Source: Patescibacteria group bacterium (lineage in GTDB: Bacteria > Patescibacteriota > Microgenomatia > Daviesbacterales > UBA10151). From it: DNA of 64,000 bases. Shown here piece by piece: positions 21,126 to 63,866 of the stretch; positions within the stretch are counted from its first letter, which is position 1, and each line of letters opens with the position of its first letter. The translations under genes were made by a program, and so were the position numbers. Location of the stretch: positions 32,103-96,102 of the forward strand of contig CALRFD010000005.1 in the NCBI GenBank assembly GCA_943356485.1. The letters run 5' to 3'. The notes under the pieces are model-generated. The model was not told the origin of the DNA, ran no database searches, and saw nothing but the letters and a program-made list of their open reading frames with translations.

Positions 21126-22195
21126 ATAAAGAGCAACCTTTAGTCACCGTATTAGTACTGACTTATAACAGATGCGATCTGCTTAAAAACTGTTTGGATA
21201 GCGTTTTAGCGTCTGATTATCCTAATCTAGAATTTATTGTTTCCGATAATGGTTCAACTGAGGACATAGAAGGTTTTGTTAAAGAAAATTATTCTAAAAA
21301 AGTGATTAACCAGTTGATACAAGTTGTTAGATTAAAACAAAATAAAGGATTAACCGGAGGTTTTAACTACGGATACAAGTTTTGCAAAGGCAAATACATA
21401 ATGATTTTAAGTAACGATACTAGACTTAAAAAAGATGCAATTTCAAAGATGGTAGAAATGGTTGAAAGTGATCCGACAATTGGAATTATTTCCCCTAAAA
21501 TAATTCAGATGAAGGATCCTCTACATTTTCATCATGCAGGAAGTTTTATAACTTTTTCAGGTCTTTTGTACCACTACGGGTTGCTGCAAGATATAAATGA
21601 TAAAAAATATCAGAAAAGCTACTATGTTTTTAGCTGTAACGGGGCGGGTTTTTTAATACGTAAAGAAGCGGCGGAGAGTTGTGGTTTATTTGAAGAGGAT
21701 TTTTATATTTATTATGAGGAGAGTGATTTGTCCCATAGAATCTGGTTAGCAGGATATAGCATTGTTTATTGTCCTAGCGCTTACCTTTGGCATCTTTGGG
21801 GAGCAACAATGGGAGCAGGACCTGAGATCTGGTACTATAATCATAGAAACCATATAAGCTCTTTTATTAGAAATTTGTCCCTACCTTACCTTTTTTTAAT
21901 GCTTTTAAATTTTAATTTATTGCTTATATTTTGGTTTATTTTGTATTCTTTGCAGTTAAGGTTTGATATAAGTATTGCACTTCCTAAAGCTTACCTTTGG
22001 CACTTAATGCATATTAAACAAACACTAAGAAAAAGAAAATTTATACAAAATAAGATTAGAAAAGTATCAGATAAAGAAATCTTTGAAAAAACTTTAGTAT
22101 CCCCGGGTTGGAGATATTATTTTATACACTTAAAGCTAGCTTACCAGGATATTGAGTTACCCAAAAGAGTATTATATCTGGAGAAAAAGAAATGA
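21122..22195 (+). CDS. GT2 glycosyltransferase
   Basis: It carries VTVLVLTYNRCDLLKNCLDSV...FIVSDNGSTED and a hydrophobic C-terminal segment. ATGA overlaps occur at both ends. Confidence 0.8.
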   Translation: MNKEQPLVTVLVLTYNRCDLLKNCLDSVLASDYPNLEFIVSDNGSTEDIEGFVKENYSKKVINQLIQVVRLKQNKGLTGGFNYGYKFCKGKYIMILSNDTRLKKDAISKMVEMVESDPTIGIISPKIIQMKDPLHFHHAGSFITFSGLLYHYGLLQDINDKKYQKSYYVFSCNGAGFLIRKEAAESCGLFEEDFYIYYEESDLSHRIWLAGYSIVYCPSAYLWHLWGATMGAGPEIWYYNHRNHISSFIRNLSLPYLFLMLLNFNLLLIFWFILYSLQLRFDISIALPKAYLWHLMHIKQTLRKRKFIQNKIRKVSDKEIFEKTLVSPGWRYYFIHLKLAYQDIELPKRVLYLEKKK

Positions 22196-24333
22196 AATCA
22201 ATTACCCGGGATTTAATAATTTTAACCAGCCTTTGTTTAATACTGGTATTTTTATGGTTTTCAAAAGGGTTAATTTTTGCCGGAGGAGAGGAAGGAATTC
22301 CTTTTTATGATTTAAATAAAACTACAGAATTTGTTTCATATTCCTGGCAGGATGTTTCAGCAGGTTACCCAACGCAGCTTCTTTTAAATAGAATTCCTTA
22401 TTTTAATTTTCTAAAGCTTTTTTATCTGATGGGTTTTCCCGGATTCTTATCACAAGCCTTGCACTTTTTCCTTATTATGAGTTTTGGTGCCATCTCTTTT
22501 TATTTTTTACTCAGAGAGACGATACAAAAAGAATTGGCTGTAAAAGATGAAGCTTTTAAATTAGTATCTTTAATCGGTGCTATTTTTTATTTACTTAATC
22601 CTTTTTCAATGACTCAAATTTGGGGGAGGGGACTTTATTTGCAATTTTTCCCCTTTGCTTTATTCCCGTTTTTTTTATTAATGTTTATATTAGGTCTTAA
22701 GGGCAAAAATTTTATCTATGGTTTGCTGGGTTTGTTTGCATCAGTTTTTTTTGCGGGGTCTTTTGGTAATCCTACTTATATTTTCTCTTTATGGATCCTT
22801 ATTTTTATCTACCTTTCTACTTACCTGTTCATTAATCGAAATAAAAAAGAAGCAATATTTGCTATTGGTTACTTCTTATTTATGATGATTGGTTGGTTAA
22901 TAGTTCAAATTTGGTGGATCTATCCTTTTCTTAAAATTTCATCAAACCAATTTAGTTCTGCTTTGAATAATTGGGATGAAAATATAGGAACCCTGAAAGG
23001 GATTAGTAAAGACTATAAAATATACAGTCTTCTAAGATTGATTCATGAAGGCTATTATTTTAGAGATCAGATGTATGGAAGTATATATTTGTCAATCCCG
23101 TTTTTTTTACTGAGCTGGATAATTCCAGTTGCCTCAGCTTTTTCTTATAAAATTCTTAAAAGAAGTAAGTTCTTTTTATTTTTTGCCGGGTTGTTTATAT
23201 TTTCTTTATTTATCTGTTCAGGTTCTAACTTACCTGCTGGTAAGCTGTTTATTTTTATATTCAGAATTTTTCCTCCCTTCCAGGCTTTCAGAAATCCTTT
23301 TGAGAAATTTGGTCTGGTTTTAACTTTGGCCTATGCGCCTTTTTTTGCAATAGGAAGCATAGTTTTATCGCAATATTTAAATAAAATATCTAAAAAATTT
23401 GGACAGAAATTATATTTATCGGGAATATTATTTTTAGTTTTTGGAGTTTTTCTCTGGCCTTTTTGGGTTGGTCAGTTTGCAGGAGGAGTTAAAATCAGCC
23501 CCTGGATTAAAGTGCCGGAATATTACAAACAAGCGGATGATTGGTTAAGCAGGCAGGGGGATGATGGAAGGATAATACATCTTCCGATAAATCCGGGTGA
23601 TGGATTGCGGTATAGCGGTTGGGATTATCCTTATCAGGGGATAGAGCCGGGGGAATATATATTCAGCAGGCCTTCTATCGGTAAAAATGGTCAGCAGTTT
23701 AAGCTTTACTACAACGTGTTGTTGCAAAGATTTAATAATTTTCATAAAGGATCCTATGGTTCTGATCCGGATATAACAAATTCTGAGTTTAAAAGTAAAG
23801 AGTTATTTGAAGAATTAGCAAAGTTAAACGTAAGATATATTATTTTACACCGTGATATTAATCCGGAGATTGGACAAGTCGGTTCCTTTGAAAATGTGGT
23901 TTCTTATTTGCAAAATCAAAAAAATATTAAGAAGATTAATACTTTTGGTAAACTTGATTTATACAAAGTGGAAATACCTGATGAAATTCATTTAATTTAT
24001 TCACCCAGTGTTGATTTGAAATATTCCAAAATTAACTCAACTTTATATAAAATTAATTTTCATAATGTTAAGAATCAGTTTAGCCTATTCTTCTTAGAAA
24101 ATTTCGATCCTAATTGGGAAATAAGTATTGATGGTCAAAAAATTGAAAATCATGAAAGAATATTTTCTTATGCTAATAGCTGGAAAATAAAAAAAGTAGG
24201 CACTTTTTCAGCTGTTTTAAGATATAAGCCACAGGATTATATGAATGAGGGAATGAACATAACGAAAACAGCAGTATTACTTGGAGTTTTTATCTGTGCC
24301 GGTTATTTTTTAAACAAAGGAGTTAGGAAATGA
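22192..24333 (+). CDS. Large polytopic membrane protein, GT-C-like (YfhO/AftD-like architecture); smallest member of the 4-gene paralogous family
   Basis: The N-terminus has GGEEGIPFYD (compare GGGDVGLPSYD in the paralogs). Other shared motifs are NPFSMTQIWGRG (compare NPYMMIQIWHRF), FRNPFEKFG and IIHLPI, plus a C-terminal TM anchor. It is 713 aa and directly follows a GT2 gene. Confidence 0.5.
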   Translation: MKSITRDLIILTSLCLILVFLWFSKGLIFAGGEEGIPFYDLNKTTEFVSYSWQDVSAGYPTQLLLNRIPYFNFLKLFYLMGFPGFLSQALHFFLIMSFGAISFYFLLRETIQKELAVKDEAFKLVSLIGAIFYLLNPFSMTQIWGRGLYLQFFPFALFPFFLLMFILGLKGKNFIYGLLGLFASVFFAGSFGNPTYIFSLWILIFIYLSTYLFINRNKKEAIFAIGYFLFMMIGWLIVQIWWIYPFLKISSNQFSSALNNWDENIGTLKGISKDYKIYSLLRLIHEGYYFRDQMYGSIYLSIPFFLLSWIIPVASAFSYKILKRSKFFLFFAGLFIFSLFICSGSNLPAGKLFIFIFRIFPPFQAFRNPFEKFGLVLTLAYAPFFAIGSIVLSQYLNKISKKFGQKLYLSGILFLVFGVFLWPFWVGQFAGGVKISPWIKVPEYYKQADDWLSRQGDDGRIIHLPINPGDGLRYSGWDYPYQGIEPGEYIFSRPSIGKNGQQFKLYYNVLLQRFNNFHKGSYGSDPDITNSEFKSKELFEELAKLNVRYIILHRDINPEIGQVGSFENVVSYLQNQKNIKKINTFGKLDLYKVEIPDEIHLIYSPSVDLKYSKINSTLYKINFHNVKNQFSLFFLENFDPNWEISIDGQKIENHERIFSYANSWKIKKVGTFSAVLRYKPQDYMNEGMNITKTAVLLGVFICAGYFLNKGVRK

Positions 24334-26572: not shown

Positions 26573-28810
26573 ATGAAAGATAAAAAATTAGTATCAGTAG
26601 TTATCGTAAGCAGGGATCGGAAGAAAGATCTTACAGAGTGTATTGAATCTTATCTTAACTCCTCATACAAAAATATTGAGGTTATTGTTGTTGATAATGC
26701 TTCCAGGCAGCCAATTTCAGATTGGGTTAGAAAGAAGTACCCTAAAGTAAAAATCATCACCAGTGATAGTAATTTAGGGGCAGCAGAAGGTAGGAATATG
26801 GGTCTTGATGTATCAAAAGGAGACTATATTATTTTCACTGATGATGATGCTTATGCTGATAAAAATATGACAAGGTATTTAGTGGAGGCTTTTGAAAAAA
26901 AGAATGATGCAGGAATTATTCAGCCCTTAGTTTACGACAAACAGGAAAAGAGTACTTTGCAAGGAGCCGGCCATGATATAGATTTGACAACAGGTAGAAT
27001 CAAAGCATGGGGGGTAAAAGAGGAAGATCAGGGTCAATATGAAGGGTTGCGGGAAGTACCGATGTGTGGTTGTGTTTGGATGGTAAAGAGGGAGGTTTTT
27101 AATAAAATTGGCGATTATGATAAGGAGTACTTTATTCCTTATGAGGATTCTGATTTTTCCATTAGGGCAAGGAAAGCAGGTTATAAACTTTATTGTTATT
27201 CACTGGCCAAAAGTTGGCATCAGGGAGTAAAGAAAACCTATATACACCCCTGGATTGAGTGGTTAGGTATCACCTCTTCGATCAGGGCGTATAGAGTAGC
27301 CAGAAATAAAATAATTTTTATGGCAAAGCATTCAGAGTATCCTTCAAATGTCCTTTTTTTTAGCATATTCCTGCCTATCTATATAATTTCGCATTCTTTA
27401 ATAATCATAGCTGCAGGTAAATTTCAGCTATTAAGCTATTATTTAAAAGGAGTTTTTTCGGGTTTAACATATCTGCTTAAAAAGATTTTTAATAGTTTGA
27501 CTTTATTAATTTTAGCCTGGAGTGATCCTCTACCCTGGGTAATTGATAGATCAGCCAAAAGTATATTGGACATAGGTTGTGGGGAAGGTCTGCCTATGAG
27601 GTTAATTAAAAAAAGGATGAAGGTGGAGAGCTCAACAGGGGTTGATTTATTTGAGCCTTATATTAAAAAAGCAAGAAATATACAAACTCACGGCAGTTAC
27701 GAGTTACAGGATATAAGAAAATTAAACTATGGTAGAGAGTCCTTTGATGTTGTAATCGCCTCTCATGTTTTAGAACATTTACCTAAAGAAGAAGCTTTAA
27801 TGGTATTAGAGAAATTAGAGCGGATTGCAAAGAAACAAATTATCATAGCAGCTCCTATTGGTGAAATGTATCATCCGGAGGTGGATGGTAATAAGTTACA
27901 GCTGCATTTATCTGAATTTGAACCGGAAGAATTCGAAAAACGTAATTACCGGATAATAAGATACGGGTGGAAATGGTTGTTGGGCGAGAAAGGTTTAATT
28001 AATAAATATCCTAATATTTTTATTCGAAAGTTAATTTTTATCATCCATTTATTATCAACCCCCCTATTTTACATATTTACTGATATTGGAACATATACCT
28101 TTGTGGCATATAAAACAAAGCCCAAAAAGGAAAATCATGACTTGTTAGTAGATAAACCCAGTAGGCTAAAAATATTTTTAATGTCTCTAACAGATCCTCT
28201 TCCACATGTTGTCGATAAAACTGCCAGGTCAATCTTGGATTTAGGTAGTGGTCAGGGAAAGCCCATGGCAATGATTAAATTTTGGAGAAAGATTGAAAAA
28301 GCAGTTGGAGTAGAGTTATACAGACCTTATATCGACCAGGCTAAACAGCTAGGCTTATATGATCAGTATCTACTTGAGGATGTCAGAAAAATAAATTTTC
28401 CGCCTAAATCTTTTGATATTGTGATGGCCTCTCACGTTTTAGAACATTTATCTCAAAAAGAGGGCTGGGTACTGCTTTCCAGGATGGAGAAAATTGCCAA
28501 AAAACAGGTTATTATTGCAACTCCAATTGGAGAAATTTATCAGCCTATGTTTGATAAGAATATATTACAAGAACATAAGTCTTATTTTTTGCCGGAGCAA
28601 TTTATCAAACGTGGTTATAAAGTTATTAAATATGGAGCAAGATGGATTTTGGATGAACATTCCAATAGTCTAGTATATCAAGCTAGAAACCCTTATTTGA
28701 AAAAATTAGTCTATATCTTTAATTATTTGATTACTCCGCTTTATTACTTTTTTCCGGAGATCTGTGATTATTCATTTGTTGCCTACAAAAATATGACAGA
28801 TGAAAGTTAA
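26573..28810 (+). CDS. Trifunctional fusion: GT2 glycosyltransferase + membrane segment + two tandem class I SAM-methyltransferase domains
   Basis: The N-terminus has the GT2 signature VSVVIVSRDRKKDL...VIVVDNASRQ. Mid-protein TM helices follow. Two repeated units each carry DPLP(W/H)V(I/V)D(R/K)(S/T)A(K/R)SILD(I/L)G(C/S)G(E/Q)G motif I and ASHVLEHL...IAKKQ(I/V)IIA(A/T)PIGE. Confidence 0.75.
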   Translation: MKDKKLVSVVIVSRDRKKDLTECIESYLNSSYKNIEVIVVDNASRQPISDWVRKKYPKVKIITSDSNLGAAEGRNMGLDVSKGDYIIFTDDDAYADKNMTRYLVEAFEKKNDAGIIQPLVYDKQEKSTLQGAGHDIDLTTGRIKAWGVKEEDQGQYEGLREVPMCGCVWMVKREVFNKIGDYDKEYFIPYEDSDFSIRARKAGYKLYCYSLAKSWHQGVKKTYIHPWIEWLGITSSIRAYRVARNKIIFMAKHSEYPSNVLFFSIFLPIYIISHSLIIIAAGKFQLLSYYLKGVFSGLTYLLKKIFNSLTLLILAWSDPLPWVIDRSAKSILDIGCGEGLPMRLIKKRMKVESSTGVDLFEPYIKKARNIQTHGSYELQDIRKLNYGRESFDVVIASHVLEHLPKEEALMVLEKLERIAKKQIIIAAPIGEMYHPEVDGNKLQLHLSEFEPEEFEKRNYRIIRYGWKWLLGEKGLINKYPNIFIRKLIFIIHLLSTPLFYIFTDIGTYTFVAYKTKPKKENHDLLVDKPSRLKIFLMSLTDPLPHVVDKTARSILDLGSGQGKPMAMIKFWRKIEKAVGVELYRPYIDQAKQLGLYDQYLLEDVRKINFPPKSFDIVMASHVLEHLSQKEGWVLLSRMEKIAKKQVIIATPIGEIYQPMFDKNILQEHKSYFLPEQFIKRGYKVIKYGARWILDEHSNSLVYQARNPYLKKLVYIFNYLITPLYYFFPEICDYSFVAYKNMTDES

Positions 28811-31800
28811 AGGTTTAATACCAATATTCCTGATATTTATACTGTCCACAGTTCTTATATTCACCTGGTTTCAAGAAGGGTATATGTATGGAGGCGGCGA
28901 CGTGGGTTTACCTTCATATGATCCAGCCCGTACCCTGGAAAAATCAGAGCATATTTGGTGGGAGGCTTCTGCTCCCGGTACAACAGTTCCACAAGGTTTG
29001 ACCTCTGTTCCTTTTCAGGTTTTACAGTCTTTTTTGCACAATATCGGTTTATCACCGGTGATGATACAGGCTTTTGTCTTCTGGAGCCTGCTCTTTTTGA
29101 TGGGTATTGGGATGTATTTTTTAGCCTTAGGGGTGTTTGAAGAAAACTTTCTTTTGGCAACAGTAGCAGCATTATTTTATATGTTCAATCCATATATGAT
29201 GATTCAAATTTGGCACAGATTTATTCATAATACAATCTTTTTGGCTGCTGTTCTTCCCTTTATATATATTTTCTGGAAAAGTTGGATTAAAACAGGTAAT
29301 TATACAAAATTATTTTTATACATACTGACAAATTTGCTGGGGGTTTATCTTTTCGGAACAATTGCTTTTATTGCCACAATTTTTATTTTAATAAGTTTTA
29401 TTTCCCTGATTGAAATCTTATTTCCCTGGCAAGGTTGGAAAAAATTTCGGATGGTTTCTAAGAGATCTATTCTAGGTATAATATTTTGGTCTTTAGCTAA
29501 TATTTGGTGGTTGTGGCCGGTATTAACGATTGCACCGGCCAGCTTATCCTTGCAGCACTCAATTGGAGAAAGCTTAGGCACCCTGCTTGCAATCAGCAGA
29601 CAAGCCATAATACCCTACAGCCTTTTAGGTATAAATTCCTTTTATCTTTATGATAAGGCGGATTGGGGGGATATATATAATAACTACTTTTTCAGGATCT
29701 TGCCCTGGCTGTCTTTATTTTTTTTAATTCCAGGTTTTATTAAAGGTTTAACAAATAGAAATTGGTTATCCTGGTCGTTACTTTTAATCTTAGGGTTATT
29801 TTTAGCCAAGGGCGCGGCAGCCCCTTTTGGTTATATCTATATTTGGGGGTTTAATCATTTTTTTGCTTTGGGAGCTTTAAGAAATCCTTTTGAAAAATTG
29901 GGTATTTTATTGCCTTTTTCTTCCGCTATTTTAATAACAATAGGTATTGATTGGTATTTAGCTAAGTTTAAGAGTCGATTGAAGATAATGATTAGGACAG
30001 GGATTTGTTTAATAATGGTACTGCTTTTGATAGTTAATCTTTGGCCAATGTGGCTTGGAAAAATATTCGGTACCCTGGAAAAACCCGGTTTTGTGGAAGT
30101 ACCTTCAGTCTATAAAGCGGCGGATAATTTCATAAAAAATCAGAGTAAAGACGGTAAAATTTTACACCTGCCACTCACAAGCGGTGAATCTATTACTTAT
30201 AACTGGCCACATGGTTATCATGGCGTTGAACCTTCTCAATTACTTTTTAAATCATTGCCCTCTGTCTCCCATGGATTCAATATTAATCCGGTTGATGATA
30301 GCTTAAATGCGCTGTCTTATATTTTCTTATTATCGGATTCTGAGGATAAGATAATTTCTATTCTGCAGTCATTTAATATTAAGTTTATTGTTTTACATAA
30401 AGATATAGAATGGCATGGAGGAGATTTAGAAGATCCTCAAAAGCTGGAAAAGCGCTTGGATGAATTTGATTTTCTTGAAAATAAAACTCAATTTGGAGAT
30501 TTGATTGTTTATAGATTGAAAGATATGTATTTTTATTCCAGGCTTAGGCTAACTAATAACATTTCCTATTTTATTTCATCTGAAAATAATATTTATTGGC
30601 CATGGTTACTCTCTTCTAATAAATCAGATCTAATTTCATCTCTGCAAAAAAAGAAAGACGATCTACTTATTAAACTTGGAACCGAAATGATTATTCCTCC
30701 CGACCATGTTTATAAATATAGTCCTCAAAAGATCGTTAAAGAAAATATAATAGGGGAAATGCCGGCTGCTAAAGTTTTACCGGACTCCCCCCTCTATCTC
30801 TTTATAAGAATTAAAGAGATGGTTCAATATTTTAGTCTACCCATTAATGATAAATTTTCTTTTAAGCTAACTTTAGCTGGTAAGAGATTAGTAGAGAGTT
30901 ATCTGATTAAAGAAAAAAAATCATCTTTATTAATTACTCCTCAACTTCAAGAATATCAACGAATCTTGACAGAAATTAGGGATGGGGTTTATGCACGGAG
31001 TAATGGAGATGAAGGGAGTAAGGAACTTTCTATTAATTTTATATTATCTCATCATTTAACCACTTTAGAACTTATTAAACAAAAGACTGTCGGTAAAGAG
31101 ATGAAGATAGTTGAATCAACCATAACGCAGTTAACTAATTTAATGAAAGAGGCAAATATTACTCCCTACAACCAACTCATTGAGAGAGAAAATTTACCCT
31201 CTGTTGGCAGATTAATTTCCAAATTTAACCTGCCTATTTCCGGCAAATATGAACTACTTCAGGCTAATGAACAAAGCCAGGGTATTTATCCAAATGGATT
31301 AGGGACTAATGATTTTCAGATTAATAATACGGTTTCGAACTTAAATGGAAAAGCTGCAGGAAATTTTATCTCCTTTGGGACGGTTAATTTAGAGGAAGGA
31401 TTAAGTGAAATAAGCTTTAATTCGATTCCATCTATAGATTTATCTACAATTAACAGAACTTCCAGAAAAGGGGATGTTAAGGAGTCGGGTGATGGAATTG
31501 AAGTAACCTCCAGTGAACACGATTCAAGTTATGTTGACTTAAATATCGATCCGATTCACGGCGGTAATTGGTATCAGCTTAGCTTTGATGCCTGGTTTAA
31601 ACTGGGGGATACCTTCAAGATACAAATAATGCAGGACACAGATCCTTATGACTCTGAAAAACCGGGTGAAAAGATACCCTCCTATGACAATGATTTTCAT
31701 AGGGATGCTTATATAAATGACTGGAATAATAACGTATTTAATTTCTATGTTAATCCGACTACGAGTAAAGTTGTAATTAGATTCCTGGTTATACCCTGGG

Positions 31801-32285
31801 ATGGCTGCAAATACTTTCTGATCTCAAAGACAGTCTGTTCCAATAAATTAGTTAAATACATTTATGAGAAATCCAGTAAGATCTCCTTTCGGAATATCAG
31901 TGTAATTAGGCCTTTAAGCAATCCTATTTTTCTAAAATCAGAAACTGCTTTCGCTCCTCAAAAAAATGAAGGTACGGTTAAATACACTCAAAATAGTGTT
32001 ACTTCATATTCGGGAAGTATAAGCCTAAGCTCTCCGGCCTTCTTAATATTTAGTGAGACATATCATCCGGGCTGGAAGTTGGAGCTTTTTAATCCAGATA
32101 AGTCTACAGTTTTGCAAAGATTTGTAGCTAATAATTATAGTAATGCCTGGTACATCGACCATCCTGGAAATTATACTTTTAAGCTTGAATTTACTCCTGA
32201 GAGGAAAGTAATTGTTGGTTTAATAATTAGCGGCTTAAGCATTTTGGGTTTACTAATTATTGTTATTAAGAAAATAAGACCATGA
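28800..32285 (+). CDS. Giant polytopic membrane protein (1161 aa), GT-C-like N-terminal domain + large extracytoplasmic domain + C-terminal TM anchor (YfhO/AftD-like architecture)
   Basis: Conserved motifs are GGGDVGLPSYDP, IWWEASAPGT, NPYMMIQIWHRF, RNPFEKLG and KILHLPLT. The C-terminus carries SETYHPGWKL...NAWYI...LEF-P followed by a TM helix. It overlaps the upstream fusion gene by 11 bp. Confidence 0.5.
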   Translation: MKVKGLIPIFLIFILSTVLIFTWFQEGYMYGGGDVGLPSYDPARTLEKSEHIWWEASAPGTTVPQGLTSVPFQVLQSFLHNIGLSPVMIQAFVFWSLLFLMGIGMYFLALGVFEENFLLATVAALFYMFNPYMMIQIWHRFIHNTIFLAAVLPFIYIFWKSWIKTGNYTKLFLYILTNLLGVYLFGTIAFIATIFILISFISLIEILFPWQGWKKFRMVSKRSILGIIFWSLANIWWLWPVLTIAPASLSLQHSIGESLGTLLAISRQAIIPYSLLGINSFYLYDKADWGDIYNNYFFRILPWLSLFFLIPGFIKGLTNRNWLSWSLLLILGLFLAKGAAAPFGYIYIWGFNHFFALGALRNPFEKLGILLPFSSAILITIGIDWYLAKFKSRLKIMIRTGICLIMVLLLIVNLWPMWLGKIFGTLEKPGFVEVPSVYKAADNFIKNQSKDGKILHLPLTSGESITYNWPHGYHGVEPSQLLFKSLPSVSHGFNINPVDDSLNALSYIFLLSDSEDKIISILQSFNIKFIVLHKDIEWHGGDLEDPQKLEKRLDEFDFLENKTQFGDLIVYRLKDMYFYSRLRLTNNISYFISSENNIYWPWLLSSNKSDLISSLQKKKDDLLIKLGTEMIIPPDHVYKYSPQKIVKENIIGEMPAAKVLPDSPLYLFIRIKEMVQYFSLPINDKFSFKLTLAGKRLVESYLIKEKKSSLLITPQLQEYQRILTEIRDGVYARSNGDEGSKELSINFILSHHLTTLELIKQKTVGKEMKIVESTITQLTNLMKEANITPYNQLIERENLPSVGRLISKFNLPISGKYELLQANEQSQGIYPNGLGTNDFQINNTVSNLNGKAAGNFISFGTVNLEEGLSEISFNSIPSIDLSTINRTSRKGDVKESGDGIEVTSSEHDSSYVDLNIDPIHGGNWYQLSFDAWFKLGDTFKIQIMQDTDPYDSEKPGEKIPSYDNDFHRDAYINDWNNNVFNFYVNPTTSKVVIRFLVIPWDGCKYFLISKTVCSNKLVKYIYEKSSKISFRNISVIRPLSNPIFLKSETAFAPQKNEGTVKYTQNSVTSYSGSISLSSPAFLIFSETYHPGWKLELFNPDKSTVLQRFVANNYSNAWYIDHPGNYTFKLEFTPERKVIVGLIISGLSILGLLIIVIKKIRP

Positions 32286-32638
32286 TTATAAATCTTAAAA
32301 AAAATCGTGATACGCTAATTAAAATACTAATTCAATTTATTTTTATCTTTCCAGTGATTTTTTTCTTAAATGCAGGTTCGCTAACAGATACATATTGGAA
32401 AGTTGCCCAATCAGTTATTTTAACCGTTGTATTTATCGCTGGATTAAGCCGGCCACAGCTAAAAAAGAATATTTTTTTATTGGGTTTATATTTAATTATC
32501 ATAATGGTGATCCTGTATGTGTTTGGTTTAGTTGATTCAGCTGATTTAGCAGGAAGTAGCGGAGTAGGAATAATAACGATGAATCTATTAACCTATCTTC
32601 CTGAATTAATAAACTTGGGTTATATTAAGAAGATATAA
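32282..32638 (+). CDS. Small 3-4 TM membrane protein, partner of the upstream giant membrane protein
   Basis: It is 118 aa and hydrophobic. It is a paralog of 36084..36413, sharing the tail LTYLPELINLGYIKK versus LSYLPDLVRIGFVKDK. There is a 4-bp overlap with the upstream gene. Confidence 0.45.
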   Translation: MIINLKKNRDTLIKILIQFIFIFPVIFFLNAGSLTDTYWKVAQSVILTVVFIAGLSRPQLKKNIFLLGLYLIIIMVILYVFGLVDSADLAGSSGVGIITMNLLTYLPELINLGYIKKI

Positions 32639-32646
32639 TCTAAGTA

Positions 32647-35600
32647 ATGAAATCTATAAACATTTTTAAAAATAATTTTCCTCAGTTTTTTATTTTTTTG
32701 TTAGTTAGCCTTTTTTTAACCATAAGCTGGTTTAGATCTGGATATATTTATGGTGGAGGCGATGTGGGTCTGCAGGTATATAACCCAATTAGGATTCTGG
32801 AACTTGTATCTTATATCTGGTGGGAGGCTACAGGACCTGGTTCTCCTACGCCACAGGGTTTAACTGCCCTTCCATTCAATTATTTTTTTTCCGGCTTAAA
32901 ATTAATAGGTTTTAGTCCTCTGATGCTTCAGTCAACTCTTTTTTTTCTGATTCTTTTTGCAATGGGTACAGGGATGTATCTGCTTATATTATTTCTCTTT
33001 AATGAAAATCATAAGAAGTATGCACTCTTGGCCGGTTTATTTTACATTTTTAACCCATATATGATGATTCAGGTATGGCATAGGTTTGTTCATAGTACAT
33101 TTTTTATTTCCGCAGCGTTGCCGTTCTTAATGATTTATTGGTTAAAGTGGGTTAGAAACAGAAAACCCCAATCGCTTTTGATATTTCTAATAATTAATTT
33201 AATATCTTTATATGGTTTTGGGACGATCGCCTATATTTTAACTCTTTGGTCTTTTCTCCTACTGATTACAATTCCTGAAATTATCTTCCCTTGGGGTGGA
33301 TTAAAAAATGCGAGGAGAGTATCACTTTTATTTTTTGTTGGGTTTTTGTTCTGGATTTTGACTAATATATGGTGGCTATTACCAATTTTTAAAATTGCTC
33401 CAAGCTTTCTATCAGAGCAGCACAGCAACGAGCAGACGCTAGCTACTATTTATACGCTAGGGTATCAAACGGTCTTGCCTTACTCCTTGCAAATGATTAA
33501 CCCTTTTTATCTCTTTTCCCAGCTGGATTTTGGCAGTAGCTATCTGCATATTTTTTTGCGCATTATCCCCTGGATTTTTGTGGCAGTTATTTTTGTAGGA
33601 ATTATAAAAGGGTTATTTAATCCAAAAAGCGCAAAATGGTCTATAGTCTATCTTTTAGTCTTAGTTCTTTCAAAAGGGGTAGCATCTCCCTTTGGATATT
33701 TTTATGTTTTAGGAATGAAGTATTTTTTTCCATTGGGAGTTTTAAGAAATCCGTTTGAGAAAATGGGGGTTTTATTGCCTGTAGTCAGCTCGATTGTATT
33801 AGTTATAGGTACGAAGATAATCTTCGATTTTTTTAAAGTAAAAACAAATATTAAATTGGCTAATTTGGTGCTACTTACAGCCTTTGGCTTAATTTTTTCT
33901 TTTTGCTGGCCAATGTTTACCGGACAAATTTTTGGTAAGTTTGATAAGCCGGAGTTTGTGGATGTGCCAAAAAGTTATAGTGAAGCTGATCAATGGATAA
34001 AAGCAGATTACTCTTCAGACTTGCATCAAAACCCCGGTAAAATTTTACACCTGCCTTTAACTAAGGGAGAAAGTATTGACTATAGCTGGGAGCATGGTTA
34101 TAGCGGCCTTGAATCAAGCGCCTTGTTTTTTACCAGCGCTCCTTCTATCTCTCATGGTTTTAATTTAGCACAGGTAGATAATGCCCTAACTTCGCTTTAC
34201 CAGGCTTTTCATAAAAGTTTTGTAAGTCCGGATACAATATTAAGGCTTTTAAACGATTTTAATGTTAAATACATAGTTCTACATAAAGATGTAAAATTGC
34301 AGGGTGGAGAATTTTATGATCCAAAACAAACTGAGGAAAAACTAAACAGCTTAGAGTATCTTACACCACCCAAAAGATTTGGTGATCTGGTTATTTATAA
34401 AATTTCTGATAAATTTTTCAGGCCAAAAATTAGTTTAACAAATAAATTTGTTTTACTCTCTCCTCCGGATAATCCTAGTCTTTGGCCTTGGATTTTAGCA
34501 GGTGATAGAACTTTGATTACAGATTTAAGTAAAAATGGGGAGATAGAGAAAGCCTCTAACGCATTTATTTTTCCCAAAAAATCTTTTTCTTATGAAGAGG
34601 CTTCTCCCTCTTCAGCAATAAGTTTAATCAACCAGCTTCTTATAAACCCTAACTACGATAATTTATGGCTTAGTTCTTTGCTTAATCTTAAAACAATTTA
34701 TCGGGCAAATAATGAAATACAGGGAGAACAGTTAAATGATAAGCTAATATCAGCTTCAAAAAAGATTTTGAAAATTGCCAGATCTATCTTTGTTGATAAT
34801 AAAATCTTTTCCTTGTCTGAATTAGATGATTATGCGGAGGAGATGAAACAGATTCTTTCTTCCAACTCAGCGGTGCTTTCCTTTTATGCTAAAGACAAAA
34901 CTATATCAAATATTTTCCAGGTTCATTTATATCTGCTTAAGGCTATAGCTAAAAAAACTCCGGTAGGTGGAAATAGCGCTGCAAGAGCTGCAGATGATTT
35001 GAAGAAAAATTTAGTATCAAATAATTTTATCTCTGAAAATTATGCAGAAGGTGAGATTCCCGTTTTGTTTGAAAAAACAGTTTTAAAGTTTGAAATACCG
35101 AAAGACTCAAATTACGAACTTTTGCTGACTCATTCCAGTAAAGAGAATTTATATCAGGAGAGATATGAAAAAATGGTAGTGCTGGTTGATGGAAAATTAA
35201 ATAATCTCACCCTTAACAAAAAGGAGAATGTTACTTCTTTAGGCGTATTCTTCTTAAGTAAAGGGACTCATGAAATAGATCTGCCAATACGATATTCAGA
35301 TAATTTGCTTTCTAACAAACAGGAAGATGTAAAAATAGAATCAATTAAGGATAAGTTGGGTTATTTTGAAGATAAGATAAGCTATGTTACAGGTCAAGAC
35401 CGCTACAAGGTAAGTTTTAGTGCAAAGGTTGAGAAAGGAAGTGGGTTTTATATTCAACTGGTGCAGGATACGGATAGTAGGGGGTCAAATAACCAAGTTA
35501 ATTATCAGGTAAATGAGTTTATAAGCCAACCATCCGGTCAGGATTTTAGGGATTATAGTTTTCCTCTTCCTGATTTAAGGTTAACCACTAAAGATGCTGC

Positions 35601-36075
35601 AGTAAGATTTTTAGCATCCTCTCCCGATGGCGGAAATCTGGTTTCTTCTTCTATGCTAATCAGAAATCTGCAGGTTAGAAGGTTTTCTGATGAGGAAGTC
35701 TTCCTGCAGGATTTTGGGAAAACCGAACCGGATATGCCATCATCCGGTCACATTTCGATAAACCAAAAAACACCTACCTTTTATGAAGGACGGATACAAA
35801 TAAGTGAACCGGCATTTGTTATTTTTAGTGAGAGCTATCATCCTGGTTGGAAATTAAGTTTGCAAAAAGAAAATAAGGAATATATTTCTAATACTCATTT
35901 TCTGGCTAATTTGTATGCTAATGCCTGGTATATAAATGAAGCAGGTAATTATAACTTTAAGCTTGAGTTTGAACCTCAGAATATAGTTAATTATGGATTT
36001 ATTATAGCTATAATAAGTTATATAGCATTAGTGTTGTATTCCCTAATTGTTAGCTTTAAAAAAGAGAAAGTATAA
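32647..36075 (+). CDS. Giant polytopic membrane protein (1142 aa), paralog of 28800..32285
   Basis: It shares the same motif set (GGGDVGLQVYNP, IWWEATGPGS, NPYMMIQVWHRF, RNPFEKMG, KILHLPLT, SESYHPGWKL...NAWYI) and a C-terminal TM helix. Confidence 0.5.
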   Translation: MKSINIFKNNFPQFFIFLLVSLFLTISWFRSGYIYGGGDVGLQVYNPIRILELVSYIWWEATGPGSPTPQGLTALPFNYFFSGLKLIGFSPLMLQSTLFFLILFAMGTGMYLLILFLFNENHKKYALLAGLFYIFNPYMMIQVWHRFVHSTFFISAALPFLMIYWLKWVRNRKPQSLLIFLIINLISLYGFGTIAYILTLWSFLLLITIPEIIFPWGGLKNARRVSLLFFVGFLFWILTNIWWLLPIFKIAPSFLSEQHSNEQTLATIYTLGYQTVLPYSLQMINPFYLFSQLDFGSSYLHIFLRIIPWIFVAVIFVGIIKGLFNPKSAKWSIVYLLVLVLSKGVASPFGYFYVLGMKYFFPLGVLRNPFEKMGVLLPVVSSIVLVIGTKIIFDFFKVKTNIKLANLVLLTAFGLIFSFCWPMFTGQIFGKFDKPEFVDVPKSYSEADQWIKADYSSDLHQNPGKILHLPLTKGESIDYSWEHGYSGLESSALFFTSAPSISHGFNLAQVDNALTSLYQAFHKSFVSPDTILRLLNDFNVKYIVLHKDVKLQGGEFYDPKQTEEKLNSLEYLTPPKRFGDLVIYKISDKFFRPKISLTNKFVLLSPPDNPSLWPWILAGDRTLITDLSKNGEIEKASNAFIFPKKSFSYEEASPSSAISLINQLLINPNYDNLWLSSLLNLKTIYRANNEIQGEQLNDKLISASKKILKIARSIFVDNKIFSLSELDDYAEEMKQILSSNSAVLSFYAKDKTISNIFQVHLYLLKAIAKKTPVGGNSAARAADDLKKNLVSNNFISENYAEGEIPVLFEKTVLKFEIPKDSNYELLLTHSSKENLYQERYEKMVVLVDGKLNNLTLNKKENVTSLGVFFLSKGTHEIDLPIRYSDNLLSNKQEDVKIESIKDKLGYFEDKISYVTGQDRYKVSFSAKVEKGSGFYIQLVQDTDSRGSNNQVNYQVNEFISQPSGQDFRDYSFPLPDLRLTTKDAAVRFLASSPDGGNLVSSSMLIRNLQVRRFSDEEVFLQDFGKTEPDMPSSGHISINQKTPTFYEGRIQISEPAFVIFSESYHPGWKLSLQKENKEYISNTHFLANLYANAWYINEAGNYNFKLEFEPQNIVNYGFIIAIISYIALVLYSLIVSFKKEKV

Positions 36076-36083
36076 AAGTCACT

Positions 36084-36413
36084 ATGAATAAAATAGTTAT
36101 TAAATTTTTTATATCAACTATATCAATTGCTTTTTTTTGGGGACTTGAATCAGGTTTTACACAGAGAAACGGGTATGAGTTAATAAAATCTATAATTTTT
36201 GCCTCTTCTTTTTTTATAGTTTTAACTAAAAAGTATAAACAATATATTCTTTGGATATCTACTTTCCTATTGATCAGTATGATTATTCTATACTTACTTT
36301 GGCAAATACAACTCTCTGATTTATTAGGAAGTATTGGATTCGGTATGTTTTTTATATTTATCTTAAGCTATTTGCCCGATTTAGTAAGGATTGGGTTTGT
36401 TAAAGATAAGTGA
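36084..36413 (+). CDS. Small 3-4 TM membrane protein, partner of the upstream giant membrane protein (paralog of 32282..32638)
   Basis: It is 109 aa and hydrophobic, with a conserved C-terminal LSYLPDLVRIGFVKDK. It occupies the same position relative to its giant gene, 8 bp downstream. Confidence 0.45.
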   Translation: MNKIVIKFFISTISIAFFWGLESGFTQRNGYELIKSIIFASSFFIVLTKKYKQYILWISTFLLISMIILYLLWQIQLSDLLGSIGFGMFFIFILSYLPDLVRIGFVKDK

Positions 36414-36570: not shown

Positions 36571-39252
36571 ATGAATAAGTTTACCTTGGTTTTTATTTTT
36601 ATATTTGCTATTTTGTTTTGGGTTTTCTGGCTGCCTGGCCCCAGGGTTGCAACAGATTATTATTTAAGCACAAGCGAAATAGTTAAAGATTATACTTTTC
36701 CTTGGGGCTGGAGGGAGAATTCATCAGATGGATTAGGGACGTATACAGTCGGAACTTTATGGTCTCAACCGATACATCTTTTATCAAGAATTCTGCTGGA
36801 GCTTAATATATCTGTTGTTTGGATTACCAAGATTTTACTCATATTATTTCTAGCGGCAGGATTTTTTTCTATAAAAAGGCTACTGGGTTATCTGCAAATA
36901 AAGGGAATGGCAAAATATACAGGGGTTTTATTTTATTTACTTAACACGTATTTCTTGCTTTTGATAGATGGGGGACAGCTTTCTTTAGCCTTTGTGTATT
37001 GTTTAGTTCCTCTTTGTATATATTTTTATCTTAAGACAATGAGTGAGCAGAGCACTAAGAATAGATTAAATTTTATAGCCTCCCTTCTTACGGTTTCATT
37101 TTTAGATATAAGGTTTGTTTTTTTATTATTTTTAATCTTTTTTATTCACATTTTATTCAGTATGGCAAAAACTACTAAAAACACAAAATTAAAATTATTT
37201 AAAAATATTTTCATAACGGGAATATTAACAGTAATATTTTTAATCCTCGCCCATATATATTGGATTTTACCAACATTTTTTTCGCATAGCATTCAATTAC
37301 CTCAAACATATGAAAGAAGCTCGCAGGTAGATTTTTTAAGTTGGTCTTCCTTAGCCCATTCTTTATTTATGCAGCAGCCTCATTGGTACAAGAATATATT
37401 CGGAAATATTTCTAATGTAGGATTAGAGTTTTCAATGATTCCAATATTAGTATTTTTAACGATTATATTAAAAAGAAAGGATAAGGTTGTTGGGTTTTGG
37501 TTAATCATAGCCATTCTAGGAATATTTTTGAGTAAAGGTTCGAAAGAGCCATTCGGAGGGATTTACACTTGGGCATTTACTAATATTCCGGGGTTTTCTT
37601 TATTCAGAGATCCGGTTAAGTTTTATCTGCTAACAGCCCTTTCTTATAGCATCTTAATATCTATTTCAATAAGTGAGATTTCAAAGTTTGATACCAGCAA
37701 AAAATTTATTAATCGGCTTGTCAAACTTATCCCAATTCTTACATTAGTATATTTAATCCTGTTAGCTTGGCCGCTTTATTTTAAGCAGATGACAGGAATG
37801 TTTTCTGAACCAAGTTATGAACAGGAGTTTTTTCAACAGTCGGAAATCTTATCCAAGGACTTCGGCTTTTCCAGAATAGTTTGGATACCAGTTCAGAAAC
37901 CTCTTGGTTTTGCCAGCACCAACCATCCTTCAATCGGGGCGATAAGATTATCCCAAAAGCGGCCGTTTGAGGTAGGTATAACAGGTACCTATGAAACGCT
38001 TAATTTTTTAAGAGATACACCTTTTATGGGAGAGATTTTTGATATTGCAGGTATTGGTTATATTAATTATCCCTATCTTGATGTTAAAAGGGATGAGATG
38101 AGTTTTGATAATAGAAAATACTTTTATACATTTTTAAATCAGCTATCGAAACTTTCCTGGCTTGAAAAAGTACCAGAGTCAAAAATCCCTCTTTTTAAAA
38201 CTACCCATCATCAAGATAGATTTTTTATTGCGCCAAATGTTTGGTGGGTAATAGGGTCAGATAAAATTTATAATGAAGCAACTAAGAGTTCCAATCTAAA
38301 ACTTGCTAACAATGCTTTGATTTTCTCAGAAGAGTACTCAGGGTTAGGGGCGGAAATTAGTAATCTGCCAAATGTAAAGATTATCCTGCAAAATAAAACA
38401 GCCATTGACCTTGCAGCTTCATTTATACAGAAAACTTTAATTTTTCCAGCAAAGCAATTAAAGTTTGATCCGGATCTAAATTCCGGATGGTGGAAAAGGG
38501 AGGCCTCAGATTTGATTAATTGGAGGGATTTTTTGCAGTCTAAGTACGGTATTAATAACCAGGATTTTGATTTAGGCGGAGGATGGGCGGTTGGCGAAGG
38601 AAATAAACAGTTGAAAATTGAAGTTTCCAAAAAAGGAAAAGAGTCTTTGAGAGAAGGAAATGTTTTATTAGCTAGGGTAATGGAGAGCACCAGAAGCGGT
38701 TCATTAAGCTTTTATCAGGATGATCAGTTAATAGGAACTCTAAATACTGAAAAAGAAGGCAATAATATCAGGTGGTTTGAAATAGGCCAGTTACGTAAAT
38801 CAGACGGACAACTGAGGATTCTATCGTTTGGGGATATTAATGTAGTTAATGCCTTAGCAATTTTAGACGCTAAAGACTGGCAGGTATTAAAAAATAAAGC
38901 TGTTTTGCTTAAGGGTAGGATTATGGATTTTAATGAAATGAATGCAAGCAGTTCTGGCGTTCCTAAAATTTCTTACCAGAAAATAAATCCGACTAAATAT
39001 GTTGTTAATATTAATGGTTTAACAAAAAGCTCTCTTTTAATATTTTCCCAAAATTACGACAGATCCTGGAAAATTAATAATCAGGAACCGCTACCTATAT
39101 ATAGTTTGCTAAACGGATTTGCTGTAAATACAGATGGCCGCTATGTTATCGAATTTGAACCTCAAAAATATATTAATTTAGGGTTAATTATTTCTATATT
39201 CACAATGAGTATCCTGATTCTTCTCATAATTAAATACAGCAAACAACGGTGA
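36571..39252 (+). CDS. Large polytopic membrane protein (893 aa), divergent member of the giant GT-C-like family
   Basis: It has the same architecture: an N-terminal multi-TM domain, a soluble domain and a C-terminal TM helix. Related motifs are FSLFRDPVKF (compare RNPFEKLG) and the C-terminal FSQNYDRSWKI...EFEPQ (compare SETYHPGWKL...LEFTPE). Confidence 0.45.
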   Translation: MNKFTLVFIFIFAILFWVFWLPGPRVATDYYLSTSEIVKDYTFPWGWRENSSDGLGTYTVGTLWSQPIHLLSRILLELNISVVWITKILLILFLAAGFFSIKRLLGYLQIKGMAKYTGVLFYLLNTYFLLLIDGGQLSLAFVYCLVPLCIYFYLKTMSEQSTKNRLNFIASLLTVSFLDIRFVFLLFLIFFIHILFSMAKTTKNTKLKLFKNIFITGILTVIFLILAHIYWILPTFFSHSIQLPQTYERSSQVDFLSWSSLAHSLFMQQPHWYKNIFGNISNVGLEFSMIPILVFLTIILKRKDKVVGFWLIIAILGIFLSKGSKEPFGGIYTWAFTNIPGFSLFRDPVKFYLLTALSYSILISISISEISKFDTSKKFINRLVKLIPILTLVYLILLAWPLYFKQMTGMFSEPSYEQEFFQQSEILSKDFGFSRIVWIPVQKPLGFASTNHPSIGAIRLSQKRPFEVGITGTYETLNFLRDTPFMGEIFDIAGIGYINYPYLDVKRDEMSFDNRKYFYTFLNQLSKLSWLEKVPESKIPLFKTTHHQDRFFIAPNVWWVIGSDKIYNEATKSSNLKLANNALIFSEEYSGLGAEISNLPNVKIILQNKTAIDLAASFIQKTLIFPAKQLKFDPDLNSGWWKREASDLINWRDFLQSKYGINNQDFDLGGGWAVGEGNKQLKIEVSKKGKESLREGNVLLARVMESTRSGSLSFYQDDQLIGTLNTEKEGNNIRWFEIGQLRKSDGQLRILSFGDINVVNALAILDAKDWQVLKNKAVLLKGRIMDFNEMNASSSGVPKISYQKINPTKYVVNINGLTKSSLLIFSQNYDRSWKINNQEPLPIYSLLNGFAVNTDGRYVIEFEPQKYINLGLIISIFTMSILILLIIKYSKQR

Positions 39253-41348: not shown

Positions 41349-42020
41349 TTGGAATCAATGAGTCAAGCTGTTTGGTATAACAGATGGGTTGAAGGGCAAT
41401 TTTATAAATATCTTTCCGGGAATATCCTAGAAGTCGGTTGTGGTATAGCTAACTTTAGTCAATATCTGTCTAAATATGGAAAATTAACCGCGATAGATAT
41501 AAATAGAGAATATATAAAGCAGGCAAAAAAGAAAGCGGGTATAGATGTAAGAGTAGGATTTGGGGATATTGAGAATGGCCAATATTTTTTTAAAGAACGA
41601 AATTTCAATACTGTTGTTTGTATCAATGTCCTGGAACATATAAATAATGATAAAAAGGCTCTAAAAAATATTGCGGAGTTGTTATTACCAAAAGGCTATT
41701 TGGTTTTGCTTGTCCCGGCTGGTAAATTTCTCTATAATCTAATAGATAGGTCAATCGGTCATTTCCGGCGTTACGAAAAAAATGAACTTTTGCTGCAGTT
41801 AGAGGAAGCAGATTTTGAGATAGTTAAATCAAAAAGGCTAAACTTCTTAGGGGCTTTGGGTTGGTTTATTTCCGGTAGGGTATTTAAAGACAGTAGTGTT
41901 GGTGAAGGGAAGATTAGAATATTTAATTTAATTGCCCCCTTATTTTTAAAGATTGAAAGTATAATTGAGCCGCCCGTTGGGACTTCAATATTAATCATAG
42001 CCAGAAAGAAAGAGAAATGA
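41349..42020 (+). CDS. Class I SAM-dependent methyltransferase
   Basis: It carries motif I ILEVGCGIANFS and NVLEHI...LLPKGYLVL. Confidence 0.75.
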   Translation: MESMSQAVWYNRWVEGQFYKYLSGNILEVGCGIANFSQYLSKYGKLTAIDINREYIKQAKKKAGIDVRVGFGDIENGQYFFKERNFNTVVCINVLEHINNDKKALKNIAELLLPKGYLVLLVPAGKFLYNLIDRSIGHFRRYEKNELLLQLEEADFEIVKSKRLNFLGALGWFISGRVFKDSSVGEGKIRIFNLIAPLFLKIESIIEPPVGTSILIIARKKEK

Positions 42021-42715
42021 AATTATCAATTATTATTCCTGTCTATAACGAGGAAAAGACAGTGGAAGAAATTCTAAAACGGGTTTTAGCAGTCAAGTTG
42101 CCTTTAAAAATAGAAAAAGAGATAATTGTTGTAGATGATGGTTCATCTGATAATACGCCAGTAATTATAAACAAGTTTACCGGGGTAAAAAAAATATTCC
42201 ATCAAAATAATTTAGGTAAAGGCTCTGCCATAAAAACCGGGCTGAAAGTTGCAACAGGAGAGGTAATTGTTATTCAGGATGGTGATTTGGAATATGATCC
42301 CCTTTATTACCCCCTCTTACTAAAACCAATCCTGGATAAAAAGGCAGATGTTGTATATGGCACCAGGTTGATTAATTATCCTTTGAGGTTATGGGGAGAA
42401 AATAAGACTATTCTACCTTTGCATTTGGTTGCAAACAGATTTTTGACGGTCTTAACTAATATCCTTTATGGTTCAAACTTAACCGATATGGAAACTTGCT
42501 ATAAAGTCTTTAGAAGAAGTTGTATTAGCGGAGTTGAATTAATCTCGAGTGGGTTTGCTTTTGAACCTGAAATAACTGCAAAATTTCTGAAAAAAGGATT
42601 AAAGATCATAGAAGTCCCTATTAAAGTTAAACCAAGAACTCATAAAGAAGGTAAAAAAATTAGCTGGTTTGATGGACTTGAGGCTGTCTTTACCTTGTTT
42701 AGATATAGGTTATGA
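42017..42715 (+). CDS. GT2 glycosyltransferase, DPM1/ArnC-like polyprenyl-phosphate sugar synthase (soluble form)
   Basis: It has LSIIIPVYNEEKTV...IIVVDDGSSDNT and IQDGDLEYDP. It is 232 aa and is immediately followed by a GT-C membrane enzyme. Confidence 0.7.
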   Translation: MKLSIIIPVYNEEKTVEEILKRVLAVKLPLKIEKEIIVVDDGSSDNTPVIINKFTGVKKIFHQNNLGKGSAIKTGLKVATGEVIVIQDGDLEYDPLYYPLLLKPILDKKADVVYGTRLINYPLRLWGENKTILPLHLVANRFLTVLTNILYGSNLTDMETCYKVFRRSCISGVELISSGFAFEPEITAKFLKKGLKIIEVPIKVKPRTHKEGKKISWFDGLEAVFTLFRYRL

Positions 42716-63236: not shown

Positions 63237-63866
63237 ATGTTATACGATATATTAAAAAGATTAACAGATATAGCCGGTTCTTTGTTTGGTTTAATTATAT
63301 TGTCTCCTGTAATATTGATGGTGGCTATTGCAATCAAATTGGATTCAGCTGGTCCTGTCTTGGCAGAGACTCCAATGCGGGCAGGTAAAAAAGGTAGATT
63401 ATTTAGAATATACAAATTCAGGTCAATGGTTCAAAATGCACAAGAAATTTTAGAAAAAAATCCCCAGCTTTTGGAGGAGTATAAAAAAAATAGCTATAAA
63501 ATCTTTAATGACCCTAGGGTTACTAGGGTTGGTAAGTTCATCAGAAGGTTTTCTATTGATGAATTTCCTCAGTTTCTTAATATTTTAAGCGGAGATATGA
63601 GTCTAGTGGGGCCAAGAGCATATTATCCTTATGAGTTAGAAGAACAGCAGGAGAAATACCCTGAATCCAGAAAATATGTTAAGGTGATATTATCAGGTAA
63701 ACCTGGTCTGACTGGCCTTTGGCAAGTAACAGGAAGGTCAGAGATTAACTTTGATAAAAGGGTCAAGATGGATGCTTTATATGTCAAACGGAGATCAATA
63801 ATTTACGATCTTTGGATTATTATTAAAACTATCCCGGCTGTTTTATCAGGAAGGGGAGCGGTTTAA
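63237..63866 (+). CDS. Initiating polyprenyl-phosphate sugar-1-phosphate transferase (bacterial sugar transferase, PglC/WbaP-C-terminal-domain type)
   Basis: An N-terminal reentrant helix (LFGLIILSPVILMVAIAIKLDS) is followed by GPVLAETPMRAGKKGRLFRIYKFRSM, DPRVTRVGKFIRRFSIDEFPQFLNILSGDMSLVGPRA, the classic Bac_transf motifs. It is 209 aa. Confidence 0.85.
   Translation: MLYDILKRLTDIAGSLFGLIILSPVILMVAIAIKLDSAGPVLAETPMRAGKKGRLFRIYKFRSMVQNAQEILEKNPQLLEEYKKNSYKIFNDPRVTRVGKFIRRFSIDEFPQFLNILSGDMSLVGPRAYYPYELEEQQEKYPESRKYVKVILSGKPGLTGLWQVTGRSEINFDKRVKMDALYVKRRSIIYDLWIIIKTIPAVLSGRGAV

Follow-up and report, generated by a model that had tools for sequence, protein, structure and literature searches.

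A tandemly duplicated module of an AftD-type membrane glycosyltransferase and a predicted four-helix partner protein in Daviesbacteria

The locus

The stretch of DNA analysed here, called the window in the following, comprises 64,000 nucleotides (nt) of assembly GCA_943356485.1 (contig CALRFD010000005.1, positions 32,103-96,102) and is locus L002 among the related loci that were compared. It contains two genes for very large membrane proteins, giant A and giant B, each followed immediately by a gene for a small membrane protein, small A and small B, respectively. An earlier note on this DNA had described a tandemly duplicated two-gene module, and the four open reading frames (ORFs), their order and their junctions were confirmed by their coordinates. 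The stop codon of giant A and the start codon of small A overlap by 4 nt (ATGA), and gaps of 8 nt lie between small A and giant B as well as between giant B and small B. Here, the possibility is discussed that each giant and its small protein together represent a split form of the mycobacterial enzyme AftD. The four genes are:

28800-32285, + strand: giant A, 1161 amino acids (aa), AftD-type GT-C membrane glycosyltransferase (assigned from the ORF, Pfam, AlphaFold2 and Foldseek)
32282-32638, + strand: small A, 118 aa, four-helix membrane protein, predicted N-in, C-in
32647-36075, + strand: giant B, 1142 aa, paralogue of giant A that is built in the same way
36084-36413, + strand: small B, 109 aa, paralogue of small A

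The giants as AftD-type GT-C glycosyltransferases

On sequence level, the Pfam family PF11847 (GT-C_AftD) matches giant A with 30.3 bits at a cut-off of 26 (E-value 1.4e-7). Giant B reaches 22.8 bits (E-value 2.6e-5) and stays under this cut-off of 26. The family is also present in the precomputed annotation of many giant homologues, and NCBIfam gave no match for the giants. A search of the Protein Data Bank (PDB) sequences with the giant profile did not find AftD at E <= 1. Since the sequence similarity is too low for such a search, the relation to AftD is seen only via Pfam and fold.

The fold was modeled for giant A with AlphaFold2 using an alignment of 117 giant homologues, and the model has a predicted local distance difference test score (pLDDT) of 89.3 and a predicted template modeling score (pTM) of 0.84. 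It displays approximately 11 N-terminal membrane helices, which end around residue 412 and are followed by a mixed alpha/beta domain. The outer domain spans roughly 700 residues (~420-1132) and contains a helical insert (~647-784) with a weak match to DUF5667 as well as beta-sandwich domains (804-1131). The last membrane helix (1133-1159) carries a basic tail. In giant B, a single C-terminal membrane segment is present at residues 1111-1139, and all giants examined have exactly one such segment followed by a basic tail, the exceptions being three interrupted or incomplete ORFs.

When the model of giant A was compared with PDB structures using Foldseek, the top match was AftD from M. abscessus (6w98_A), which aligned over the whole chain with an E-value of 7e-16, a probability of 1.0 and ~9% identity. 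The next matches were STT3 and PglB, which are oligosaccharyltransferases, and DPY19, a C-mannosyltransferase (E-values from 3e-7 to 1.5e-3), and beta-sandwich parts of glycosidases and toxins were matched as well. The beta-rich region itself gave only a CBM_4_9 match with an E-value of 0.075. By predicted fold and by sequence, the giants are AftD-type GT-C glycosyltransferases, and by analogy with this family their expected donor is a sugar linked to polyprenyl phosphate, used on the outer side of the membrane. Within the first outer loop, 11 residues past the first transmembrane (TM) helix, a GGGD motif is found which is kept in at least 90% of the 117 homologues. Its aspartate (D34) would correspond to D41 of AftD, which is essential (bioRxiv 10.1101/2019.12.22.885152).

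The giant homologues stem from Candidatus Daviesbacteria and from unclassified Microgenomates or Patescibacteria. As a side observation, the loci L005, L006, L008, L011, L014, L016-L019 and L022-L024 are titled 'uncultured Gammaproteobacteria bacterium' in GTDB, clearly either a placeholder title or a mislabelling.

The small proteins as a predicted four-helix family

The AlphaFold2 model of small A (pLDDT 85, pTM 0.70) consists of four helices (residues 5-31, 38-56, 60-80 and 84-104), followed by a short amphipathic tail. Lysine and arginine residues are concentrated near the N-terminus, between helices 2 and 3 and within the tail, with counts of 1.5, 2.8 and 3.0 for the inside segments versus 1.1 and 0.2 for the outside ones. 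Due to this distribution, a topology with both termini inside (N-in, C-in) is predicted. The earlier note had assigned three membrane helices to the small proteins; both the model and the lysine/arginine pattern predict four.

For small A, only three close relatives were found among 5.8 billion proteins. When 1.84 billion representatives were searched with a profile built from the partners in related loci (41 members), 99 clusters were recovered, the best of them at an E-value of 1e-38. These clusters are, bar one, stand-alone proteins, mostly of 105-120 aa, and include some shorter fragments. The 41 members gave no meaningful Pfam match at E <= 10 and no NCBIfam match, and a search of PDB chain sequences with the profile returned nothing at E <= 10. 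Judged from these sequence searches, the small proteins are an unannotated family of predicted membrane proteins for which neither Pfam nor NCBIfam holds a model.

Three motifs characterize this family. At the outer end of TM1, LExGF is present, the glutamate of which is nearly invariant. TM4 contains GSxGFG, a Gly- and Ser-rich sequence, which can be interpreted as the kind of motif associated with tight helix packing. The cytoplasmic, amphipathic tail follows the pattern YLPxLIKxGYIxK. A conserved tail had already been pointed out for the two small proteins of the window, where it reads LTYLPELINLGYIKK and LSYLPDLVRIGFVKD; it is real and represents the most conserved part of the family. From TM2 to TM4, charged residues are almost absent.

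The one cluster that is not a stand-alone protein is P0166, a protein of 4342 aa, which the profile matched in 67 stretches at profile positions 58-98. It was set aside, since it is probably a repetitive hydrophobic protein rather than a true relative.

An old duplication of the whole unit

The two giants share 37% identity end to end (BLASTP, E = 0) or 39% by global alignment. The similarity is unevenly distributed: in the global alignment, residues 1-590 are 47.5% identical, residues 591-1040 only 22-28% and the last 120 residues 45%. The estimate of about 50% identity for the N-terminal domain in the earlier note was therefore a fair one. The divergence between the giants is concentrated in the extracytoplasmic domain. 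Small A and small B are 31% identical over 88 residues (E-value 5e-13), and their Smith-Waterman score of 141 compares with 35.6 +/- 6.5 in 1000 shuffles (z = 16). At DNA level, identity between the two units survives just in short patches (70-81% identity), which shows that the duplication is old.

The giant-small-giant-small layout is present in 11 genome loci (L001, L006-L013, L018 and the window's own L002) and was seen in L032, L033 and L036, too. Across genomes, the best match of a protein in position 1 is always another protein in position 1. Proteins in position 2 find their best match in position 2, in one case in a locus with a single module, and never in position 1. Likewise, the closest relatives of small B are position-2 small proteins elsewhere, for example in L009 and L001. 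The pairwise identities of the giants and those of their partners are correlated (r = 0.80), and none of 2000 permutations gave a value as high. These position-wise matches together with the correlation indicate that the whole unit was duplicated before the species split and that the giants have kept their own partners ever since. An ancient tandem duplication followed by divergence, as proposed from the window alone, is thus well in line with the shared layout, the position-wise orthologues and the old divergence of the DNA.

Linkage of the small gene to the giant gene

The linkage was followed in about 50 pairs, which come from 21 genome loci and, in addition, from 13 metagenome contigs. In all of these, the small gene lies directly after the giant gene and starts -55 to +9 nt from its stop codon, so that an unlinked partner, which would have refuted the reading of the earlier note, was found nowhere in this sample. 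The commonest junction is the 4-nt ATGA overlap, which occurs in 11 of 30 pairs. Even the weakest members of the family (E-values from 1e-3 to 1e-6) are encoded directly behind the C-terminus of a giant. The small protein is hence a conserved and dedicated partner, in line with the conservation on which the earlier note had based its proposal of a functional subunit.

The other GT-C enzymes of the cluster, which are an AftD-like protein of 713 aa, one of 893 aa and four PMT_2-like enzymes, do not have a small partner. Since the partner is restricted in this way, a subunit of the giants fits better than a general flippase for the sugar donor.

Comparison with AftD and other GT-C systems

AftD consists of 11 GT-C TM helices, periplasmic domains, a re-entry into the membrane by TM12, a loop of 18 residues and finally TM13-16 (bioRxiv 10.1101/2019.12.22.885152). 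The latter form a four-helix bundle, which is a separate membrane domain unique to AftD. The bundle is in contact with TM8 and TM9, and the phosphopantetheine arm of an acyl carrier protein is bound by it; a stop codon at T1285, which removes the bundle, abolishes the function of the enzyme (bioRxiv 10.1101/2019.12.22.885152). The giants resemble AftD in the GT-C domain of ~11 TM helices, in the very large outer domain with predicted beta-sandwich modules, in the single helix by which the chain re-enters the membrane and in an acidic residue near the start of the first outer loop. Furthermore, the bundle of AftD follows TM12, which is the same place where the small gene follows the giant gene.

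In contrast to AftD, TM13-16 are absent from the chain of the giants, and any bundle would have to be the product of a separate gene. The giants also differ by the low identity of ~9% and by the helical insert at ~647-784. The hosts are different as well: the giants are found in a bacterium of the candidate phyla radiation (CPR) with no known arabinogalactan, and no genes of the decaprenyl-phosphoarabinose (DPA) pathway were seen in the window.

In the three-component systems (the GT2 protein GtrB/CsbB with GtrA/GtcA and a GT-C enzyme, or ArnC-ArnE/F-ArnT), a GT-C enzyme likewise adjoins a small four-helix protein, and the cluster described here also holds a likely polyprenyl-phosphate sugar synthase. 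However, the small protein of the giants has no detectable relation to GtrA or SMR/EamA and its helices are almost uncharged. Its gene follows the GT-C gene with an overlap, and it was duplicated together with the GT-C gene instead of being common to all GT-C enzymes of the cluster.

Small multi-helix proteins such as DAD1/Ost2, Ost4 and TMEM258 can be obligatory partners of the GT-C subunit STT3 in the eukaryotic oligosaccharyltransferase. STT3 is the second-best fold-match group for giant A, while these partners have no relation in sequence or fold to the small family. Bacterial GT-C enzymes are usually considered to consist of a single subunit. A complex of AftD with TmaT has been described from M. 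smegmatis, in which TmaT contacts TM8 and TM11 of AftD (bioRxiv 10.64898/2026.07.31.741936). This is similar to the idea of a giant-small complex, since AftD is joined there, at its GT-C membrane domain, by the product of another gene. TmaT is, however, unlike the small protein a 10-TM enzyme of the acyltransferase-3 (AT3) type, and no AT3 gene adjoins the giants.

A possible split AftD

We tentatively propose, at somewhat less than an even chance, that the small protein is a separate subunit standing in for the TM13-16 bundle, so that giant and small protein together would make up a split AftD. This proposal is drawn from architecture, gene order, topology and partner specificity, and not from a demonstrated homology. 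With 105-120 aa, four helices and an N-in/C-in arrangement, the small protein is encoded right after the TM12 equivalent, as TM13-16 are in AftD. A chain continuing from the TM12 equivalent would need just this predicted topology.

Following the known family, the giant would receive its sugar on the outer side of the membrane from a donor linked to polyprenyl phosphate and would extend a surface glycan with it, while this glycan may be bound by the beta-sandwich domains of the outer region. According to the model and hydropathy, the chain of the giant re-enters the membrane once and ends after the TM12 equivalent. Here, the translationally coupled small gene may supply a four-helix bundle in place of TM13-16, as the architecture suggests. 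Each giant would have a membrane subunit dedicated to it, the role of which would lie in structure or regulation. The earlier note had considered a stabilising subunit, of which the C-terminal bundle of AftD would provide a more specific version.

The duplication would have led to two enzyme-subunit pairs, which differ mainly in the outer domain, taken here as the acceptor-binding part. Because the difference lies mainly in this domain, the two pairs probably add sugars at different positions or linkages of one polymer. The suggestion of two related acceptor or linkage specificities, which was made from the sequence of the window, would fit to this concentration of divergence.

A bolder version of the split would be that the small proteins are true homologues of TM13-16, an ancient subunit that became fused in Actinobacteria and stayed separate in Daviesbacteria, and that they act as a ligand-sensing regulator by which the synthesis of the surface glycan is linked to the lipid or carrier state of the cell. 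This version is unlikely.

Neighboring genes

The module is part of a larger cluster, of which the following genes are relevant here:

26573-28810, + strand: GT2 with two methyltransferase modules, 745 aa, assigned by Pfam domains
36571-39252, + strand: distant GT-C paralogue of the giants, 893 aa, with one C-terminal membrane helix and without a small partner
42017-42715, + strand: GT2, 232 aa, the best candidate in the cluster for the synthesis of a polyprenyl-phosphate-sugar donor
22192-24333: AftD-like protein, 713 aa, with a PF11847 match to the middle of the profile only (E-value 1.7e-11)
63237-63866: Bac_transf initiating transferase

The stop codon of the 745-aa protein overlaps the start of giant A by 11 nt, and this gene opens a tightly packed block from 26573 to 36413. 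The protein carries two tandem copies of a module made of a membrane segment and an S-adenosylmethionine-dependent methyltransferase, which are 47% identical (E-value 1e-75). In other Daviesbacteria, its parts are encoded separately, by one gene for a GT2 joined to a single methyltransferase (~534 aa) and another for a methyltransferase (~219 aa).

The 893-aa protein was related to the giant profile by hhalign with a probability of 98.6% and an E-value of 9e-16, the matching region being the membrane GT-C domain. Pfam gave no match for this protein, and NCBIfam a weak, sub-threshold match to the MmpA family. In the hhalign alignment, the GGGD loop of the giants is paired with GPRV, and the usual catalytic aspartate therefore seems to be missing. 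In most loci, a paralogue of this type comes after the module. The 713-aa protein is the fourth AftD-like paralogue, and in related loci versions of 750-890 aa occupy the same upstream position.

The NCBIfam models that match the 232-aa GT2 best are those of AglJ, ArnC, PpgS and dolichyl-phosphate hexose transferase, and none of these matches reaches the curated cut-off. This gene is kept in the syntenic cluster and, judged by these matches, it likely makes the donor for the GT-C enzymes.

The gene order in the strongly syntenic operon is AftD-like GT-C enzyme, GT4, GT2, methyltransferase(s), GT2, giant, small, giant and small, and after the second small gene the paralogue of 890 aa, a MOP flippase, GT2, methyltransferase and GT2. 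A GT2 and a methyltransferase are found upstream of the first giant in most loci. According to Pfam scans, the whole window of 64 kb is devoted to glycan-synthesis functions. It encodes four AftD-like and four PMT_2-like GT-C enzymes, a Wzy_C protein, a MOP flippase, two carbamoyltransferases, many GT2 and GT4 proteins and sugar-nucleotide enzymes. Among the window ORFs of at least 100 aa, no GtrA, SMR or other candidate for a flippase of monosaccharide-lipids was found, and the only flippase-type gene is the MOP/Wzx-type Polysacc_synt protein. Likewise, the Pfam scans of the window gave no ORF with a match to a DPA-pathway family. The G+C content of the genome is 33%.

Weighing the explanations

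Several observations speak against a split AftD. No fusion of giant and small protein was seen in the 99 family representatives, the 21 loci or the 13 extra contigs. Giants without a partner are present, too, in second position in L004, L014 and L017 and in third position in L036 (4619-7630). These are mostly shorter (1003-1016 aa), with the one of L017 having 1145 aa, and the third giant of L036 lacks the profile positions ~641-810, which correspond to the region of the helical insert. Thus, the partner is not required by every member of the giant family. In partial Mantel tests, the small protein co-diverges with the membrane domain of the giant no more strongly than with its outer domain (partial r = 0.34 for both). 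The PDB chains searched with the small-family profile included AftD and gave no match at E <= 10, and neither sequence nor fold similarity supports a homology of the small family with TM13-16. Finally, the cluster appears to make polyprenyl-phosphate sugars and has no recognisable flippase for them, which leaves room for such a function of the small protein.

In this alternative, each giant would have its own flippase in the small protein, which would translocate the polyprenyl-phosphate-sugar donor and would be a functional counterpart of GtrA/GtcA, ArnE/ArnF or Rv3789 from an unrelated family. Its length of ~110 aa and its four membrane helices resemble GtrA and ArnE/F, and a small membrane protein beside a GT-C gene is the hallmark of the three-component systems. 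The best matches of the GT2 from the conserved cluster are polyprenyl-phosphate sugar synthases, the gap among the window ORFs described above would be filled, and the nearly invariant glutamate of LExGF lies at the outer end of TM1. On the contrary, the GtrA-like translocator that the earlier note had considered finds no counterpart in the sequence comparisons: none of the 41 members matches PF04138, PF00893 or PF00892 (GtrA, SMR and EamA) at E <= 10, and the hhalign probability is 0.06% for GtrA and 0.5% for ArnE. The GtrA and ArnE sequences used for this comparison were confirmed by Pfam (2.6e-13 for GtrA). Also the uncharged stretch from TM2 to TM4 would be unusual for a protein that passes a phosphate-sugar head group across the membrane, and only the giants have a partner, each paralogue its own, while the six other GT-C enzymes of the cluster, for which flipped donors would be required as well, have none. 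Taken together, a flippase is regarded as the main, though improbable, alternative.

Another role of the small protein is conceivable, such as a factor for insertion or stability, a handler of the product or the acceptor (for example of a primer with a lipid anchor) or a regulator with a cytoplasmic ligand bound via the YLPxLIKxGYIxK tail; the small protein would then not be equivalent to the AftD bundle. The strict linkage and the co-divergence show a functional tie and not its kind, the most conserved region comprises the cytoplasmic amphipathic tail and TM4, the family has no known relative in fold or sequence, and with TmaT at TM8 and TM11 AftD has other membrane partners. Nothing specific points to any of these roles, though, and the positional and topological match to TM12 plus bundle of AftD would be a coincidence, so that such a role appears doubtful. 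That the small ORFs are spurious, arising by chance in AT-rich DNA past the giants, might be suspected from their short length, their hydrophobicity, the genome of 33% G+C and the missing database annotation. However, ORFs of 105-120 aa are kept in every related locus, with identities near those of the giants (for example 71% versus 78% and 72% versus 75%). The 99 clusters recovered by the profile down to 1e-38, the confident AlphaFold2 model and the conserved motifs add to this, and due to the conservation this explanation is excluded for all practical purposes.

Significance

In a literature search for AftD together with CPR bacteria, AftD was mentioned in none of the papers listed. The module is best, though tentatively, read as a split and duplicated AftD-type enzyme with a dedicated four-helix partner. 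AftD is an essential cell-wall enzyme of mycobacteria, the bundle of which is required although its role is not understood. If the split is true, a natural split form would offer a simple genetic system for asking what this bundle does, and it would provide an example of bacterial GT-C enzymes with small subunits of their own. If, in addition, the small proteins are homologous to TM13-16 and serve as regulatory subunits, this would be the first case in which an accessory subunit is dedicated to a GT-C enzyme of bacteria. If they are flippases instead, a new family of lipid-linked-sugar translocators would have been found.

Independent of this, the small family with its about 100 clusters gains a clear genomic partner. 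Genomes of the CPR/Patescibacteria group are usually small, and if this holds here, at least 64 kb of glycan genes are a large investment. The position of the module in the middle of a conserved glycan operon points to a major surface polymer in the uncultivated Daviesbacteria.

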